A stretch of DNA of 64,000 nucleotides, taken from assembly GCF_041248615.1 (NCBI RefSeq), contig NZ_CP158426.1; one strand, given 5' to 3'. The DNA comes from Escherichia coli (GTDB lineage: Bacteria > Pseudomonadota > Gammaproteobacteria > Enterobacterales > Enterobacteriaceae). Below the pieces are notes generated by a model that did no database searches, was not told the origin of the DNA, and was given only the letters and a program-made list of their open reading frames with translations. Position numbers and translations under genes: made by a program. Positions 23,247 through 47,695 of the stretch are shown here, piece by piece (within the stretch, counting starts at the first letter, position 1; each line of letters starts with the position of its first letter).

Positions 23247-23345
23247 GCCGGATGCGGCGCGAACGCCTTATCCGGCCTACAAAAGTTTGCAAATTCAATA
23301 AATTGCAGAATTCATGTAGGCCTGATAAGCGAAGCGCATCCGGCA
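23247..23345. repeat. BIME: two inverted REP (palindromic unit) elements
   Basis: GCCGGATGCGGCGCGAACGCCTTATCCGGCCTAC and inverted copy GTAGGCCTGATAAGCGAAGCGCATCCGGCA, canonical E. coli REP sequences. Confidence 0.9.
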
Positions 23346-25446: not shown

Positions 25447-25526
25447 AAATACTCCCGCTATCAACTGACGCTAGTATAACGGAAGCAAATCATCTGCAAT
25501 GCATTAAGCAGCAGGCAAATTGAGGA

Positions 25527-25590
25527 TAAAAAAACCCCCACATCATGTGGGGGAAGACAGGGATGGTGTCTATGGCAAGGAAAACAGGGT
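25527..25590 (-). ncRNA. cpxQ: CpxQ-like sRNA from the cpxP 3' UTR, including terminator hairpin
   Basis: ~65-nt 3' UTR between the cpxP stop (25594-25596) and the hairpin CCCCCACATCATGTGGGGG + T-run (25527-25552). Assigned from the K-12 precedent that CpxQ is processed from this 3' UTR; boundaries approximate. Confidence 0.5.
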
Positions 25591-25593
25591 TTA

Positions 25594-26094
25594 CTACTGG
25601 GAACGTGAGTTGCTACTACTCAATAGCTTCAACGATGAACTTTTTTGCCATTGCGTCACGTCACGCAACTGCTCCATTCGTTGTTGATGTTTCTCATTTA
25701 AAACCGCTTGCTGCTCCGGCGTTAACAGGCGATACATTTGGTTGCGGACTTTTGCCATCTCAACCTGACGAGCAATTTGCTCATTCGCCATTTTTTCTGC
25801 CTGTGCGCGCACAGCGTTTTCATCAAAATTTTCTGCGGTGACAAGGCGATGCATTGTCTCCAGTTCGCTAACATTAACAGGAGGCTGTTCGTGCCGGGCC
25901 TGTTGCATAAGATCTCGCATCTGCTGACGCTGATGTTCGGTTAAACTTATGCCGTCGAACATATGGCTCTGCGTACTGCGCTGCGTAAGTTCTTCACCCG
26001 GATGCCAGTTATCGCCTGAACCGACTTCAGCAGCGTGGCTTAATGAACTGACTGCCAGCGTTGAGGCCATGACGGCAGCGGTAACTATGCGCAT
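25594..26094 (-). CDS. cpxP: Periplasmic Cpx stress adaptor CpxP
   Basis: 166 aa, [39 protein letters not shown]... with LTxxQ motifs. Confidence 0.94.
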
Positions 26095-38618: not shown

Positions 38619-40013
38619 TCAGAAGAAGTATTTAAAGCGAACGCGTGCGCCGTAACGGTCATCAGTATCATCACCGTGTTTTTTATCACCGTCGCTATCC
38701 AGAATGGAGTAATACGTCCCGAGGTAAATATTAAAGTTCTCCATATCCATCACATTAGCGAACTGATAAGACGCATGAATGGTGTGAATGGTGTACGTCC
38801 CTTCATCATCAATCCAGCAGTCGTTATCACAAACTACACCGCTGAATTCATCAATCTTATTGTGCGCGTAGATATAACCCAGCTCGAAACGTTTCCACAG
38901 CGCGTTAATCCCGGCAGTGAAATCTTTCTCATTATTAGCATCTAAATAGGCGGTATTAAGATTAACCACGACACCATTTTCCGGATCCGTTTTCAGGCCA
39001 TTCCAGGTCATGCTCATACCATAGCCGGTACGATCGGACTGATCGACAAAATTACCCTTGCTATCGGTATAACCATAAGCATTATTTACCACGTTCGCTT
39101 CCATCGCTGCGGAAACGGTGAATTCTTCCGTCGGCGACCAGGCAATTACCGGACGCAGATAAGCAACATTTTTCTGCTGCTCCATATCGCGTCCATGATA
39201 ATTACCGTCATTATATAAAGATGTTCCGTCTTCAAGTAACGTGTTTAATTCAAAATACCAGTTATCAAGTTGTTTGCTGACGAGGAAATTACCGCCAGCG
39301 TTAGAGCGCCCGCGGCCCTCTTTCATCATATAGATATAACCGCTGCCATCGTCATAAAGATCGTTCGCAGTATTACCGGAATGTTCAACAAAGGTATCCT
39401 GATTCAGCGGGAACATATCATAGGCTTCGAAACGACCGACTTTGACCTTCCAGTCATTCTCTTTGCCAAAGAAGAATACCGCATCATCGATATTTACTGA
39501 ACCGTGCATGTCCCCCAGCGGTTGTGCGGAGAACCCGGCGAAATAACCATTATCCAGTTTTCGCATACCATCAAAACCTAACAGAATACGACCATTGAGA
39601 TTCCACTGTTCATTAGTGGGATCGCTATTCACATCAGCGTTGGTCATTGCCAGCAAGCCATGATTACTTTCCGCATCCATATTAAATTCTACGTCGCCGT
39701 AGATTTTTAAATCGCCATAACCTGAGAGCAAAAGATTAGGTGAGGTGGCATTTTTCTTTGCAGATTCCGCCGTTGCCTGTCCATTTACCGGCGTATTGCC
39801 CTGAGCGGCCTTAATTTCGCGGATCTCAGCGGCTTGTTGTGTCTGCAACTGTTTAACCTGGCTCTCTGCTTTTGCCGCCCGCATTTCTGCCGCTTCCAGG
39901 CGTTCTTCCAGCAATGCCATGCGTTGTTCCAGCGTTAAATGCTGTGTTTTTGCCATACCGGTACTACATGCCAATAATAAACCGATGGCTAAAGATAATG
40001 TCGATTTTTTCAT
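38619..40013 (-). CDS. Putative outer-membrane beta-barrel porin with N-terminal coiled coil (carbohydrate-porin-like); occupies the position of frvABXR in K-12
   Basis: 464 aa; signal peptide MKKSTLSLAIGLLLACSTGMA, then a heptad coiled coil (LEQRMALLEERLEAAEMRAAKAESQVKQLQTQQ), an aromatic-rich region with alternating hydrophobic pattern, and a C-terminal ...RVRFKYFF ending in Phe, the OMP beta-barrel signature. Preceded by a 350-bp AT-rich region. Confidence 0.7.
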   Translation of the reverse strand: MKKSTLSLAIGLLLACSTGMAKTQHLTLEQRMALLEERLEAAEMRAAKAESQVKQLQTQQAAEIREIKAAQGNTPVNGQATAESAKKNATSPNLLLSGYGDLKIYGDVEFNMDAESNHGLLAMTNADVNSDPTNEQWNLNGRILLGFDGMRKLDNGYFAGFSAQPLGDMHGSVNIDDAVFFFGKENDWKVKVGRFEAYDMFPLNQDTFVEHSGNTANDLYDDGSGYIYMMKEGRGRSNAGGNFLVSKQLDNWYFELNTLLEDGTSLYNDGNYHGRDMEQQKNVAYLRPVIAWSPTEEFTVSAAMEANVVNNAYGYTDSKGNFVDQSDRTGYGMSMTWNGLKTDPENGVVVNLNTAYLDANNEKDFTAGINALWKRFELGYIYAHNKIDEFSGVVCDNDCWIDDEGTYTIHTIHASYQFANVMDMENFNIYLGTYYSILDSDGDKKHGDDTDDRYGARVRFKYFF

Positions 40014-40366
40014 TATTTACGTTCCCTGAAATAAAGGAGGCCCTACGCTTTCCAAAAGGAATACGTATATAGAGAAATATAAAGTGTGCACTTTCGAATT
40101 TTTAATCCAACTTCAGCAGGCCGATGGATAGTATCCCGCCGCATAATATGAGTAAATCCGCTGATTTCCTGGAACGTGAGGAATATAACAATAGTGCCGT
40201 TTTTAACCAAATATCGTAAAAAATATTAGATATAATTCACGCTGACTCATAAGCCACAAATATAAATAACGCTTAAACAAATTATCTGAGACATTTAAAC
40301 ATTCACAACATCATTAAATAATGATACTTTATTCACAAAATTTATCCTTCACTCTGCTTTATATTG

Positions 40367-41095
40367 TCACGACTTCGTGACATATCCGCGCTCATCACAA
40401 ACCCGCCCCGCGATTACAATTGACTGAAATATTTCATCGACCATTTCGTTGTACTCGCGTAACGCTCGCGGAAATGAGTCGTCGACCATCCAGCTTGTGT
40501 TTGCATCCTGAAGTTGCTCTTTATCCCAGTCAGAGTACGGAACTTTATCTCTGACGCGGCGAACATATTTTTTAGCCTCGAGTTGATACTGGTCTGCCGA
40601 ATTAATGAACGAGAAATTCATACCGCCTTTATCCGCTTCTTTGGCCTGCGCCACCAGCGTTTCCAGTTCAGAGACTTTCTTCATTGCCGCATCAACATCA
40701 AACTTCTCTTGCGATATCAGGTTATTAATTTGTTTCGCTGAAATCATGACTGCCAGAGAATAGTAGTGGAATGTTTTCCCTTCTCTTTCTTCAATATTTT
40801 TCAGTTCCGCAAGCTGACGCTTATCATTAATTTCCTGGATCGCCGCATGATAAGATTCGGCTACAGGTTCAAAGGCGTCCAGATTTTTTAAGAATGTCTG
40901 GTGCAGCGTTTTCCCTTTCGCAAACGCATCGTCTTTATAATTTTCCTGGGTGTAATATTTATCCATTTCGTTAATGGTATTACCCAACGCCACGGCAGCA
41001 TCAATATAACTCACCGCCACGCCATCAATAGGTTGCAGCGCAGGCGTTAACGCTACTACACGCGTTTTGTTTATAAATAAAATAATAAAATTCAC
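40367..41095 (-). CDS. yiiG: YiiG-like protein (assigned by synteny downstream of fdhD); possibly shortened relative to K-12
   Basis: 242-aa ORF starting 49 bp after the fdhD stop with no signal peptide or lipobox at this N-terminus. Identity rests on position only; the K-12 protein is remembered as longer. Confidence 0.5.
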   Translation of the reverse strand: MNFIILFINKTRVVALTPALQPIDGVAVSYIDAAVALGNTINEMDKYYTQENYKDDAFAKGKTLHQTFLKNLDAFEPVAESYHAAIQEINDKRQLAELKNIEEREGKTFHYYSLAVMISAKQINNLISQEKFDVDAAMKKVSELETLVAQAKEADKGGMNFSFINSADQYQLEAKKYVRRVRDKVPYSDWDKEQLQDANTSWMVDDSFPRALREYNEMVDEIFQSIVIAGRVCDERGYVTKS

Positions 41096-41144: not shown

Positions 41145-41978
41145 TTAATTGCTCAAACGCTGTGGATGAGTATAAACCGTTGCCCGACCCGGTTTACAAA
41201 AGCCCACCAGCGTCAAATTACAGCGTTCAGCCACTTCTACAGCAAGTGTGGTCGCGGCAGACACCGCAAACAAAATCTCTACGCCACACATCGCCGACTT
41301 TTGCACCATTTCATAGCTGGCACGGCTGGAAACCAGCACCGCACCTTGCTGCCAGCTTTCCCCTTCTTGTGACCGGCGGCCTAACAGTTTGTCCAGCGCC
41401 ACATGGCGACCCACGTCTTCATGCCCGCCGACCAGTTCGCCAGATGGCAACATCCATGCAGCGGCGTGAGTACAACCGGTCAGTTGCCCCACTGGCTGGA
41501 AATCATTAAGATGACGTAATGCATCATCCAGTTTGTTGAGATCAAACGTCTGGGTGAACGGCAGCGGCTGCACCGGTTTTCCGATATCATTAAGTTGCTC
41601 CACGCCGCACACGCCGCAGCCTGTACGCCCGGCCAGCGCCCGGCGACGTTCCTTCAACCCCATAAAGCGGCGGCTGGAAAGCTCAATTTGAACTTCAAGA
41701 CCATTACAGGAAGGAACGACATCCATGCCGAAGATATCGCGCGGACTTTCTATTATCCCCTCGGAAAGCGAAAAACCGAGCGCAAAGTACTCAAGGTCTT
41801 TGGGCGACGCCATCATCACCACATGCGAAATGCCGTTGTAGACCAGCGCAACGGGAACTTCTTCCGCGACCTCATCTAACCGTGGGTGTTGTAAATCATC
41901 ACGCCGCCATAACTCAATTTGACGAACACCTGTGATATTTGTCACATTTTCGATTTCTTTTTGCTGTGTTTTTTTCAC
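41145..41978 (-). CDS. fdhD: Formate dehydrogenase accessory sulfurtransferase FdhD
   Basis: 277 aa, (GTG start) [37 protein letters not shown]... with GCGVCG motif. Confidence 0.94.
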
Positions 41979-42171
41979 TTTCTCTTAACCAGATAAGAAC
42001 ACACACACCAACATTATGGTATTCTGTTACAAACCCTTCCTGGATGGAGGGAAATTGAGCCAATTCTGGACCTTTGCGGCCCCTTCCGCAAAGAAAAATA
42101 ACTCCCACTCCCTGCACACGCAGCAAGCGAATGTAAATGGGACGTGACAATGTCGAAACAAGGAGCAATCC

Positions 42172-45100
42172 ATGCAGGTCAGCAGAAGGCAGTTCTTTAA
42201 GATCTGCGCTGGCGGTATGGCAGGCACCACGGCAGCGGCACTGGGTTTTGCACCCAGCGTAGCACTCGCGGAAACCCGGCAGTATAAACTGCTGCGCACC
42301 CGCGAAACCCGTAATACCTGCACCTATTGTTCCGTAGGCTGTGGGCTGTTGATGTACAGCCTCGGTGACGGAGCAAAAAACGCCAAAGCATCTATCTTCC
42401 ATATCGAAGGCGATCCGGATCACCCGGTCAACCGCGGTGCACTTTGTCCGAAAGGCGCTGGCCTGGTGGATTTCATCCACTCCGAAAGCCGTCTGAAGTT
42501 TCCGGAATACCGTGCGCCAGGTTCTGATAAATGGCAGCAAATCAGTTGGGAAGAGGCGTTTGATCGCATCGCCAAACTGATGAAAGAAGACCGCGATGCT
42601 AACTACATTGCGCAAAACGCCGAAGGCGTGACTGTTAACCGCTGGCTCTCCACCGGGATGCTGTGTGCTTCCGCGTCGAGTAACGAAACCGGCTATTTAA
42701 CGCAAAAATTCTCCCGCGCGCTGGGTATGCTCGCGGTCGACAACCAGGCGCGTGTCTGACACGGACCAACGGTAGCAAGTCTTGCTCCAACATTTGGTCG
42801 CGGTGCGATGACCAACCACTGGGTCGACATCAAGAACGCCAACCTCGTCGTGGTGATGGGCGGTAACGCCGCTGAAGCTCACCCGGTCGGGTTCCGCTGG
42901 GCGATGGAAGCCAAAATTCACAACGGCGCGAAGCTGATTGTGATCGATCCTCGCTTTACGCGTACGGCGGCGGTGGCTGACTACTATGCCCCTATTCGTT
43001 CCGGTACTGACATTGCTTTCCTGTCAGGCGTATTGCTGTACCTGCTGAACAATGAAAAATTCAACCGCGAATACACCGAAGCCTATACCAACGCCAGCCT
43101 TATCGTGCGTGAGGATTACGGCTTTGAAGATGGCCTGTTCACCGGCTACGACGCGGAAAAACGCAAGTACGATAAATCCTCCTGGACTTACGAACTGGAC
43201 GAAAACGGCTTCGCCAAACGCGATACCACGCTGCAACATCCGCGCTGCGTGTGGAACTTGCTGAAACAGCACGTTTCCCGCTACACGCCAGATGTGGTTG
43301 AAAACATCTGTGGTACGCCAAAAGACGCGTTCCTGAAAGTCTGCGAATACATCGCCGAAACCAGTGCTCACGATAAAACTGCCTCGTTCCTGTATGCCCT
43401 CGGCTGGACGCAACACTCTGTTGGTGCGCAAAACATTCGTACGATGGCGATGATCCAGCTGCTGCTCGGCAATATGGGGATGGCAGGCGGCGGCGTTAAC
43501 GCCCTGCGCGGTCACTCCAATATTCAGGGGCTGACGGACCTGGGGCTGCTGTCGCAGAGCCTGCCGGGTTACATGACGTTGCCGAGCGAGAAGCAGACCG
43601 ATCTGCAAACCTACCTTACAGCCAACACGCCAAAACCGCTGCTGGAAGGTCAGGTAAACTACTGGGGCAACTACCCGAAATTCTTCGTCTCCATGATGAA
43701 GGCCTTCTTTGGTGATAAAGCGACGGCGGAAAATAGCTGGGGCTTTGACTGGTTGCCGAAGTGGGATAAAGGCTACGACGTCCTGCAATACTTCGAGATG
43801 ATGAAAGAAGGCAAGGTCAATGGCTATATCTGCCAGGGCTTTAACCCTGTTGCCTCATTCCCGAACAAAAACAAAGTGATCGGTTGTCTGTCGAAACTGA
43901 AGTTCCTCGTCACCATCGACCCGCTGAACACTGAAACCTCTAACTTCTGGCAGAACCACGGTGAGCTGAACGAAGTTGACTCGTCGAAGATCCAGACCGA
44001 AGTGTTCCGTCTGCCATCGACCTGCTTCGCGGAAGAGAACGGTTCTATCGTTAACTCCGGTCGCTGGTTGCAGTGGCACTGGAAAGGTGCGGACGCCCCG
44101 GGGATTGCGCTGACTGATGGCGAGATCCTCTCCGGTATCTTCCTGCGCTTGCGCAAGATGTATGCCGAACAGGGTGGCGCGAACCCGGACCAGGTGCTGA
44201 ACATGACCTGGAACTACGCCATCCCGCATGAGCCGAAGTCGGAAGAAGTGGCGATGGAGAGCAACGGTAAGGCGCTGGCCGATATTACCGATCCGGCAAC
44301 CGGGGCGGTTATCGTCAAGAAAGGCCAACAACTTAGCTCGTTCGCCCAACTGCGCGATGACGGTACCACCTCCTGTGGCTGCTGGATTTTCGCCGGTAGC
44401 TGGACGCCAGAGGGCAACCAGATGGCACGCCGTGATAACGCCGATCCGTCTGGCCTCGGTAACACGCTGGGCTGGGCATGGGCATGGCCGCTTAACCGCC
44501 GCATTCTGTATAACCGCGCCTCCGCAGATCCGCAGGGTAACCCGTGGGATCCGAAGCGTCAGTTGCTGAAATGGGACGGCACCAAATGGACCGGCTGGGA
44601 TATTCCGGACTACAGCGCAGCACCTCCGGGCAGTGGCGTCGGGCCGTTTATCATGCAGCAGGAAGGCATGGGACGTCTGTTTGCCCTTGATAAGATGGCG
44701 GAAGGTCCGTTCCCGGAACACTACGAGCCGTTTGAAACGCCGCTGGGAACTAACCCGCTGCATCCAAACGTTATCTCGAACCCGGCTGCGCGTATCTTTA
44801 AAGACGACGCCGAAGCGTTGGGTAAAGCCGATAAGTTCCCGTATGTCGGAACCACCTATCGTCTGACCGAGCACTTCCACTACTGGACCAAACACGCGCT
44901 GTTGAACGCGATTTTGCAACCAGAGCAGTTTGTGGAAATCGGGGAGTCGCTGGCGAATAAACTTGGCATTGCCCAGGGCGATACCGTGAAAGTCTCCTCC
45001 AACCGTGGCTATATCAAAGCCAAAGCGGTGGTGACCAAACGTATTCGCACGCTGAAAGCGAACGGCAAAGATATCGATACCATCGGTATTCCGATTCACT

Positions 45101-45222
45101 GGGGCTATGAAGGCGTAGCTAAAAAAGGCTTTATTGCCAATACGTTAACGCCATTCGTTGGTGATGCGAACACGCAGACGCCGGAGTTTAAGTCCTTCCT
45201 TGTGAATGTGGAAAAGGTGTAA
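42172..45222 (+). CDS. fdoG: Formate dehydrogenase-O major subunit; selenocysteine encoded by in-frame TGA at 42757-42759
   Basis: Track ORFs 42172..42759 and 42808..45222 are in the same frame and joined by one TGA (..NQARV-U-HGPTVASLAPTFGRGAMTNHW..). Tat signal RRQFFK at the N-terminus; 1016 codons in total. Confidence 0.95.
42760..42800 (+). promoter_or_regulatory. SECIS stem-loop directing selenocysteine insertion at the fdoG UGA
   Basis: Immediately 3' of the TGA: cacGGACCAAcggtaGCAAGtCTTGCtccaacatTTGGTCgc with nested complementary arms. Boundaries approximate. Confidence 0.7.
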
Positions 45223-45234
45223 CGGAGACGACAT

Positions 45235-46137
45235 ATGGCTTATCAATCTCAAGATATCATTCGTCGTTCCGCGACTAACGGTCTGACCCCCGCGCCTCAG
45301 GCGCGGGACTTCCAGGAAGAAGTGGCGAAACTTATCGACGTCACCACCTGTATCGGCTGTAAAGCCTGTCAGGTGGCGTGTTCAGAGTGGAACGACATTC
45401 GCGATACCGTCGGCAATAACATTGGGGTGTACGACAACCCCAATGATTTAAGCGCCAAATCGTGGACGGTAATGCGCTTCTCGGAAGTGGAGCAGAACGA
45501 CAAACTGGAATGGCTGATCCGCAAAGACGGCTGTATGCACTGTTCCGATCCAGGCTGCCTGAAAGCGTGCCCGGCGGAAGGTGCAATTATTCAGTATGCC
45601 AACGGTATCGTCGACTTCCAGTCCGAGCAGTGCATTGGCTGCGGTTATTGCATTGCGGGCTGTCCGTTCGACATTCCGCGCCTCAACCCGGAAGACAACC
45701 GCGTCTACAAATGTACGCTGTGCGTTGACCGCGTGGTGGTTGGGCAAGAACCAGCCTGCGTGAAGACCTGCCCAACGGGCGCGATTCACTTCGGTACGAA
45801 AGAGTCGATGAAAACGCTGGCGAGCGAGCGCGTTGCTGAGCTGAAAACCCGCGGTTACGACAATGCGGGTCTGTACGATCCGGCAGGCGTTGGTGGTACA
45901 CACGTCATGTACGTGCTGCACCATGCTGACAAGCCAAATCTGTATCATGGCTTGCCGGAGAACCCGGAAATCAGCGAAACCGTGAAATTCTGGAAAGGCA
46001 TCTGGAAACCGCTCGCAGCCGTTGGCTTTGCGGCTACCTTCGCAGCCAGTATCTTCCACTACGTGGGTGTCGGTCCGAACCGTGCGGATGAGGAAGAGAA
46101 TAATCTGCACGAAGAGAAAGACGAGGAGCGCAAATGA
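45235..46137 (+). CDS. fdoH: Formate dehydrogenase-O iron-sulfur subunit
   Basis: 300 aa with four CxxCxxCxxxCP ferredoxin motifs and a C-terminal TM anchor. Confidence 0.95.
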
Positions 46138-46769
46138 AACGACGTGACACCATCGTGCGCTACACCGCGCCGGAACGTATCAACCACTGGATCACCGCCT
46201 TCTGCTTCATCCTGGCGGCGGTGAGCGGGCTTGGCTTTTTGTTCCCGTCCTTCAACTGGTTGATGCAAATCATGGGCACACCGCAGCTGGCGCGAATTCT
46301 GCACCCGTTTGTCGGCGTGGTTATGTTTGCCTCGTTCATCATCATGTTTTTCCGTTACTGGCATCACAACCTAATCAATCGGGATGATATCTTTTGGGCG
46401 AAGAATATTCGTAAGATCGTCGTCAACGAGGAAGTAGGTGACACCGGGCGTTATAACTTCGGTCAGAAATGCGTTTTCTGGGCGGCGATTATTTTCCTGG
46501 TTCTGCTGCTGGTGAGCGGCGTGATTATCTGGCGTCCTTATTTTGCGCCTGCTTTCTCAATCCCGGTGATCCGATTCGCGTTAATGCTGCATTCATTTGC
46601 CGCAGTGGCGTTAATTGTGGTTATCATGGTGCATATCTACGCCGCCCTTTGGGTGAAAGGCACGATTACCGCCATGGTGGAAGGATGGGTTACCAGCGCC
46701 TGGGCGAAGAAACATCACCCGCGCTGGTACCGTGAGGTCCGCAAGACAACGGAAAAGAAAGCTGAATGA
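46134..46769 (+). CDS. fdoI: Formate dehydrogenase-O cytochrome b556 subunit
   Basis: 211 aa, four TM helices, [33 protein letters not shown]... Confidence 0.95.
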
Positions 46770-47695
46770 GTATTCGCATAATCCCGCAAGATGAGCTGGG
46801 TTCGAGCGAGAAACGTACGGCGGATATGATTCCGCCGTTATTGTTCCCTCGGCTCAAGAATTTATACAACCGCCGCGCCGAGCGTCTGCGCGAGCTGGCA
46901 GAAAATAATCCGCTGGGTGATTACCTGCGCTTTGCTGCGCTTATCGCCCACGCCCAGGAAGTGGTGCTGTACGACCATCCGCTGGAGATGGATCTGACTG
47001 CACGCATTAAAGAAGCCAGCGCACAGGGCAAGCCCCCGCTGGATATTCACGTTCTGCCGCGTGATAAGCACTGGCAAAAGCTGCTGATGGCGCTAATTGC
47101 TGAGCTGAAACCTGAAATGAGCGGCCCGGCGCTGGCAGTGATTGAGAATCTGGAGAAGGCATCGACTCAGGAGCTGGAAGATATGGCCAGCGCACTGTTT
47201 GCCTCTGATTTCTCATCCGTCAGTAGCGATAAAGCGCCGTTTATCTGGGCTGCACTGTCGCTCTACTGGGCGCAGATGGCCAATCTGATCCCTGGCAAAG
47301 CCCGCGCTGAATACGGCGAACAACGTCAATATTGCCCGGTATGTGGCTCTATGCCTGTTTCCAGCATGGTGCAAATTGGCACCACTCAGGGTCTGCGTTA
47401 CCTGCACTGCAACCTGTGTGAAACCGAATGGCACGTAGTGCGCGTAAAATGCAGCAACTGCGAGCAGAGCGGCAAACTGCATTACTGGTCGCTGGATGAC
47501 GAACAGGCCGCGATTAAAGCCGAAAGCTGCGATGACTGCGGCACTTACCTGAAGATTCTTTATCAGGAAAAAGAACCGAAAGTTGAAGCCGTGGCAGATG
47601 ACCTCGCCTCTCTGGTACTGGACGCGCGAATGGAGCAAGAAGGCTATGCTCGTAGTTCCATCAACCCGTTCCTGTTTCCGGGTGAAGGGGAGTAA
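46766..47695 (+). CDS. fdhE: Formate dehydrogenase formation protein FdhE
   Basis: 309 aa with paired CxxC motifs ([27 protein letters not shown]). Confidence 0.95.

Follow-up and report, generated by a model that had tools for sequence, protein, structure and literature searches.

The question raised by this locus is whether a TGA triplet, lying within a long reading frame, ends a gene or is read through. The window, i.e. the whole 64-kb stretch of DNA that was analyzed, contains, on the + strand, a frame that opens with an ATG at 42172, meets the TGA at 42757–42759, corresponding to codon 196, and continues in phase into an ORF at 42808..45222 (42808 − 42172 = 636 = 212 × 3). Translation of 42172–45222 gives 1016 sense positions, with the triplet at codon 196 as the single internal stop. 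The first-pass annotation had taken the two ORFs found here as one 1016-codon fdoG gene, interrupted solely by this TGA, and had warned that gene calling, when TGA is treated as a stop, would split it. Coordinates and codon count are both correct, and a plain ORF listing does split the gene exactly in this way, into ORFs of 195 and 804 codons. The 48 nt running from the TGA to the ATG at 42808, which the listing leaves out, correspond, in frame, to the conserved motif HGPTVASLAPTFGRGA. In RefSeq, one 3051-nt CDS is already annotated across the TGA.

The window derives from the chromosome of E. coli: with the gene and its surroundings (3.2 kb) as query, E. coli chromosomes are retrieved, the best match showing 100% nucleotide identity. 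Of 5426 complete genomes of the species, 5425 carry the gene. The frame read through the TGA (42172..45222, + strand, 1016 codons plus stop) encodes the catalytic alpha subunit of formate dehydrogenase-O. Its product is identical to K-12 FdoG (b3894) at 1015 of 1016 amino acids, and to K-12 FdnG at 782 of 1016. With the model of the FdnG/FdoG family, TIGR01553, a single unbroken match covers residues 2–1015, at 1572 bits (cutoff 814). Pfam domains are found at residues 44–103 (Molybdop_Fe4S4), 107–589 (Molybdopterin, which spans codon 196) and 894–1009 (Molydop_binding). The sequence at the N-terminus, MQVSRRQFFK, resembles a signal for twin-arginine export.

Four genes related to formate dehydrogenase flank fdoG, each annotated under the same name as indicated by the model matches. 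On the − strand, divergent from fdoG, lies fdhD (41145..41978; TIGR00129, 340 bits), coding for an accessory sulfurtransferase for formate dehydrogenase. Downstream, on the + strand, fdoH (45235..46137; TIGR01582, 478.7 bits) encodes the iron-sulfur beta subunit, fdoI (46134..46769; NF007924, 453 bits) the cytochrome b556 gamma subunit, and fdhE (46766..47695; NF002925, 604 bits) a formate dehydrogenase accessory protein. The same layout, fdhD / fdoG-fdoH-fdoI-fdhE, is present in K-12. The gamma subunit distinguishes the two respiratory enzymes, since FdoI scores 453 bits with the Fdh-O model NF007924, as compared to 244 bits with the Fdh-N model NF007558. Because of the identity to K-12 FdoG, of the flanking genes and of this preference for the Fdh-O model, the gene is identified, from sequence comparison, as fdoG and not fdnG. 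The symbol "fdnG", assigned by PGAP in these records, is a misnomer.

In the 5' untranslated region, the Rfam family "FdoG-1 5' UTR thermometer" produces a match of 30.7 bits at 42024–42201, below its gathering score of 50; the well-aligned part merely consists of the ribosome-binding site and the first codons. The region 42120–42205 folds no better than its shuffled versions (z +0.68). The thermometer was rejected as a candidate.

The identity of residue 196 was evaluated by protein alignment, with an X set at this position of FdoG. FdoG and FdnG (PDB 1KQF, chain A) align over their entire lengths; the non-standard residue 196 of the latter falls exactly opposite the TGA (42757..42759, + strand), and the surrounding motif, VDNQARV-x-HGPTVASL, is identical in the two proteins. 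The alignment to FdoG/FdnG selenoproteins, proposed by the first-pass annotation as a check, thus supports its reading of the codon. Residue 196 of 1KQF is, we assume, a molybdenum ligand. The next-best structure chains, after 1KQF, were deposited as "selenocysteine-containing" formate dehydrogenases. In K-12, fdnG carries a TGA at codon 196 and fdhF a TGA at codon 140, the latter within a shared ARV-x-HGP motif.

According to the literature, FdnG, FdoG and FdhF are exactly the three selenopolypeptides of E. coli (PMC4009273; the inclusion of FdoG is also reported in PMC3160892), and Fdh-N/Fdh-O activity is lost in a selC mutant (PMC3160892). A cysteine codon at this position in homologous genes had been named as the observation which would speak against selenocysteine. 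Homologues were collected from one genome per species, by a pattern fixing codon positions 1 and 2 of HGPTVA-x-LAP and accepting TGA, TGC or TGT as first codon. All of the 121 homologous sites (120 loci) carry TGA and none a cysteine codon, in a sample where, the surrounding peptide being fixed by the pattern, cysteine-type homologues with a different motif are not included. The TGA-bearing homologues span Gamma-, Beta- and Alphaproteobacteria. Within the species, 5321 of 5433 E. coli records match an 80-nt block containing the TGA at 99% identity or more.

Taken with the properties of the downstream RNA, described below, these data make it nearly certain (probability about 98%) that UGA codon 196 of fdoG is recoded to selenocysteine, and that the mRNA just downstream folds as a bacterial SECIS hairpin.

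The minimum-free-energy (MFE) fold of 42757–42805 is a two-part hairpin of −14.6 kcal/mol, in which a lower helix, pairing GGACCAA (42763–42769) with UUGGUC (42794–42799), is topped by an apical stem-loop. In the MFE fold, the 5' arm of the lower helix spans 42759..42769, taking in the last base of the UGA, and the 3' arm spans 42794..42804 (both + strand); pairing of the two arms is also seen across species. The apical hairpin (42771..42788, + strand), defined by the fold and by cross-species pairing, and likely to be the part bound by SelB, reads GG-U-AGCAA-[GUC]-UUGCU-CC. It is composed of GG (42771–72), a bulged U (42773), AGCAA (42774–78), the loop GUC (42779–81), UUGCU (42782–86) and CC (42787–88), and therefore has a stem of 7 bp with one bulged U. 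A spacer of 11 nt (42760–42770) separates it from the UGA, and the loop G (42779), invariant in 59 distinct sequences from different species, is located 20 nt past the A of the UGA.

The stem-loop had been described from inspection of the sequence as GGACCAA...GCAAG/CTTGC...TTGGTC, at 42757–42800. The lower helix, GGACCAA/TTGGTC, does fold. The pairing of GCAAG with CTTGC (42775–42779/42781–42785) cannot form as written, because a one-base loop would remain; in reality the pairing is offset by one position. A hairpin does follow the TGA, but the element reaches beyond the indicated end of 42800, its lower helix ending near 42804 and the Rfam match at 42812.

A SECIS in the expected position had also been claimed, and this is borne out both by a family match and by the covariation reported below. 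The Rfam family SECIS_3 (RF01989) matches 42754..42812 (+ strand), at model positions 1–59 of 59, with 84.3 bits (gathering score 63, E 2.7e-20), and the match recurs when the whole window is scanned. In bacteria, the SECIS is described as lying just 3' of the UGA, its stem being 6–8 bp long and its loop bearing a conserved G some 20 nt past the UGA, and as being bound by the WHD3-4 domains of SelB (PMC4605307). The element agrees with this description and is classified as a bacterial SelB-dependent SECIS of the SECIS_3 type, the expectation that SelB binds it and that selenocysteine is inserted being derived from the E. coli literature on FdoG and FdnG (PMC3160892, PMC4009273, PMC4605307).

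Three known E. coli elements may be compared with the one described here. K-12 fdoG (b3894) shares, besides protein identity and operon context, 63 nt around the UGA base for base; 40 nucleotide changes are found over the 3051-nt gene, none of them in 42700–42860, and the strain surroundings differ. The fdnG gene (1KQF; SECIS_3, RF01989) shares Sec196, the motif VDNQARV-U-HGPTVASL and a SECIS identical over 71 nt, but is a paralogue, with 77% amino acid and 75% nucleotide identity, at a separate locus adjoining fdnHI. More distant is fdhF (Fdh-H, Sec140; SECIS_2, RF01988), the experimentally dissected prototype. Here, too, the UGA is followed by CACGG and, in K-12, by the same 11-nt spacer, and the hairpin is likewise made of GGU, a stem, a G-U-C-containing loop and CC, with a bulged U after GG. 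The stem, in contrast, is UGCA/UGCA in fdhF and AGCAA/UUGCU in fdoG, and lower helix and downstream peptide differ; on the SECIS_2 model the fdoG element scores only 28.1 bits (gathering score 70). In the dissection of fdhF, the 11-nt spacing and the bulged U of the upper stem were reportedly found to matter.

The folding check suggested for 42757–42805 confirms that a hairpin forms, although not an unusually stable one. When compared to dinucleotide shuffles, its stability has a z of −1.45, and 19 of 200 shuffles fold as well. A second comparison was made with synonymous recodings of the 16-residue peptide, obtained by resampling codons according to fdoG's own codon usage: 92% of them are at least as stable as the native sequence. 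Stability alone, for this reason, proves nothing and, since nearly any encoding of the peptide yields a hairpin, the absence of a stable hairpin, proposed as a refutation of the SECIS, is a weak test. All seven apical pairs, on the other hand, are kept in only 1.9% of the recodings. The thermodynamic stability of the hairpin is thus unremarkable, while its specific shape is beyond chance. Stability was consequently dropped as evidence, and shape, covariance-model score and covariation were used in its place.

Covariation was analyzed in an alignment of the 59 distinct 54-mers obtained from the 121 sites, where the columns that the scan pattern fixes are bound to be invariant. In the apical helix, 100% of cells are paired. 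Pair 42774/42786 occurs as GC in 35 sequences, AU in 17, GU in 6 and CG in one; pair 42777/42783 as AU in 31, CG in 22 and GC in 6; no sequence leaves either unpaired. All four columns are synonymous third-codon positions, left free by the scan pattern. The covariation score, 0.19–0.20, compares with 0.10 in shuffled alignments and is reached in none of 500 shuffles; sliding the 3' partners by 1–3 columns lowers the paired cells to 53% or less. Two codons do not vary at all: threonine is always encoded by ACG and serine by AGT, at positions which the pattern did not constrain.

The lower helix is less conserved, with 83–85% of cells paired, and adopts two alternative registers, according to lineage. 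In enterics A(42765) pairs with U(42798), i.e. A9–U42 in alignment numbering; in pseudomonad-type sequences a C is paired with the neighboring G (C9–G41). The consensus register of Rfam has two mismatches in the present sequence, and the MFE register is shifted by one base with respect to it. Across species, the two are paired at similar frequencies, 90.6% of cells for the Rfam consensus and 91.1% for the MFE-shifted register, each suiting a different lineage.

Conservation of the RNA is also evident from the comparison of the two paralogues. The fdoG gene of the window and K-12 fdnG share 75.1% of nucleotides, and only 58% of the codons for identical residues are the same. The longest stretch without a difference, 71 nt at 42754–42824, includes both UGA and SECIS, and no other exceeds 37 nt. 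The same 71-mer is present in 36 fetched loci, belonging, where the organism is listed, to Enterobacterales of other genera, including Yersinia, Providencia, Photorhabdus, Citrobacter, Klebsiella, Serratia, Morganella and Xenorhabdus. Given its occurrence in other enteric genera, the identity is more readily ascribed to purifying selection acting on the RNA than to gene conversion between fdoG and fdnG.

Two other explanations of the locus may be considered. The TGA could be a genuine stop, in which case the locus would be a split or decaying pseudogene, or would comprise two distinct genes, with 195 and 804 codons; a mechanical ORF list does report two ORFs. A search of 41900–42900 for promoter-like and terminator-like sites gave none bearing on the question either way. 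A decaying gene, however, would hardly keep the TGA in a nearly invariant block in the E. coli records, nor at every homologous site from Gamma- to Beta- and Alphaproteobacteria. Moreover, both the Molybdopterin domain and the NCBIfam equivalog run straight across the triplet, and the conserved HGPTVASLAPTFGRGA continues in frame past it. Conservation of the TGA within and between species, and the protein domains spanning it, exclude, for practical purposes, both a true stop and a pseudogene.

Alternatively, the UGA could be read through by virtue of something else, and the hairpin be a by-product of the conserved peptide HGPTVASLAPTFGRG, with no function at the RNA level. This peptide is indeed strongly conserved, and the behavior of the synonymous recodings indicates that some stable hairpin is nearly guaranteed by the amino acids. 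The amino acids, however, do not account for the shape, given the rarity of recodings which keep the seven apical pairs; nor do they account for free third positions which covary so as to maintain pairing, with no unpaired cell in 59 sequences, for a threonine third position that is always G, for an AGT serine codon that never varies, or for a 71-nt block in which every synonymous site is frozen, in enteric genera as well as between two paralogues that are 75% identical. It is the covariation at synonymous sites, together with the frozen third positions, that excludes this explanation, to which we assign hardly any weight. The reading retained is that of a selenocysteine codon followed by a SECIS.

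In the mechanism that may be proposed for fdoG, SelB would bring Sec-tRNA(Sec) and GTP, and would use its C-terminal winged-helix domains to bind the apical hairpin at 42771–42788, where the bulged U and the loop G/U are presumably the contacts with the protein. The 11-nt spacer would place the SelB complex at the ribosomal A site upon arrival of the UGA and, the spacing being fixed, Sec-tRNA(Sec) would thereby be able to outcompete release factor 2. The ribosome would next melt the hairpin, translating it as HGPTVASLAPTF. In the active site of the formate dehydrogenase-O catalytic subunit, which is periplasmic and putatively exported by the Tat system, Sec196 would then act as ligand to the molybdenum. 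These steps are modeled on the established selenocysteine pathway of E. coli (PMC4605307, PMC8124441), and it is from the literature that SelB binding, actual selenocysteine insertion and competition with RF2 are expected to apply to fdoG.

The genes for the required machinery are located elsewhere, as no tRNA gene and no sel gene is found within the 64-kb window. Of 5426 complete E. coli genomes, all but one carry selAB (5425) and all but two selC (5424), and, on the basis of this species-wide prevalence, selA, selB and selC are presumably present in this exact strain as well.

The Sec196 codon and the SECIS of E. coli fdoG are already known, textbook biology, and their identification here adds nothing new, FdoG being a long-established E. 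coli selenoprotein, one of three. For annotation, recognition of the SECIS rescues the correct 1016-codon gene from the split produced when TGA is read as a stop, as RefSeq already does; Rfam, too, treats the element correctly. The main use of the locus is as a positive control, showing that recoding signals are recognizable from raw sequence.

Finally, the 71-nt block is written in A/U-rich, otherwise disfavored codons, which leaves the hairpin weaker than 92% of its synonymous recodings. A rather speculative suggestion, which we regard as possible but on balance doubtful, is that constraint in Enterobacterales spans the whole block, and not just the 18-nt apical hairpin, with lower helix and 3' flank having a tuned role. 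Such a role would exceed the requirements of a "minimal SECIS" model. Stability might, in that case, be held down to ease unwinding of the element by the ribosome once selenocysteine has been inserted; alternatively, lower helix and flank might act in pausing or in the competition with RF2.

The 71 nt at 42754-42824, which include the in-frame UGA codon of fdoG (42757-42759) and the SECIS hairpin that follows it, do not differ at any position between fdoG and its paralogue fdnG, the nucleotide identity of the whole genes being 75%. The identical 71-mer is present in 36 of the fetched loci (the 120 loci carrying homologous TGA sites, from a collection with one genome per species); where an organism is listed, it belongs to another enteric genus. 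The block reaches about 20 nt past the hairpin, and its codons are A/U-rich and rare (GGA, GTA, AGT, CTT, ACA): because of this codon choice, the SECIS element is less stable than 92% of its synonymous recodings.

The lower helix of the element (42759-42769 with 42794-42804) can be paired in two mutually exclusive registers, which are split by lineage in the alignment of 59 distinct 54-mers from the homologous sites. In sequences of the GGA...GGU type, found in enterics and Pasteurellaceae, the A pairs with the U; in those of the GGC...GGC type, found in pseudomonads and others, the helix is shifted by one base. The consensus structure of the Rfam family (SECIS_3, RF01989) has the second of these registers, in which the E. 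coli sequence shows two mismatches. Among the fetched loci, a contig of an uncultured Enterobacterales MAG (L023) contains two TGA+SECIS sites, at 2250-2281 and 8164-8195, located on the same strand about 5.9 kb apart and slightly different in their SECIS sequences; they may belong to tandem fdnG-like operons.

In all of the 20 RefSeq/PGAP records listed, the gene at 42172-45222 is indicated by the symbol "fdnG" and the product "formate dehydrogenase-N subunit alpha". Its sequence, which matches K-12 FdoG at 1015 of 1016 residues, and the neighbouring genes show it to be fdoG. The label looks like a systematic naming slip, arising because a single equivalog model, TIGR01553, spans both paralogues.

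Around the start of the gene, the Rfam model RF02778 ("FdoG-1 5' UTR thermometer") gives a sub-threshold match at 42024-42201 (+), scoring 30.7 bits against a gathering score of 50, with confident alignment confined to the ribosome-binding site and the initial codons; the 42120-42205 segment folds no better than its shuffles (z +0.68). Further upstream, the 38619-41095 (-) stretch between rhaM and fdhD contains a gene for a carbohydrate porin (38619-40013) and a yiiG that is truncated and carries a pseudogene annotation, its N-terminus being missing; at the corresponding place in K-12, yiiG is intact and is followed by frvR.

Elsewhere, colinearity with the otherwise near-identical NZ_OW967178.1 is lost at the left end of the window (1-3500), occupied by an Rhs element core-protein gene and an adjoining sel1-repeat gene: the offset shifts and one part is unmatched, as would be expected if the C-terminal tip of Rhs is variable. 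At about 25500-25750, near cpxP/fieF, the offset to NZ_OW967178.1 changes by a single base, through an indel of 1 nt between the two strains or through a difference in assembly. Rfam matches above the gathering score were also obtained for the leader of ribosomal protein L31, which precedes rpmE (4909-4961, -), the ClpQY (hslVU) heat-shock promoter element (9573-9630, +) and, between sbp and pfkA, the ES036 (CssrF) sRNA (23282-23323, +).
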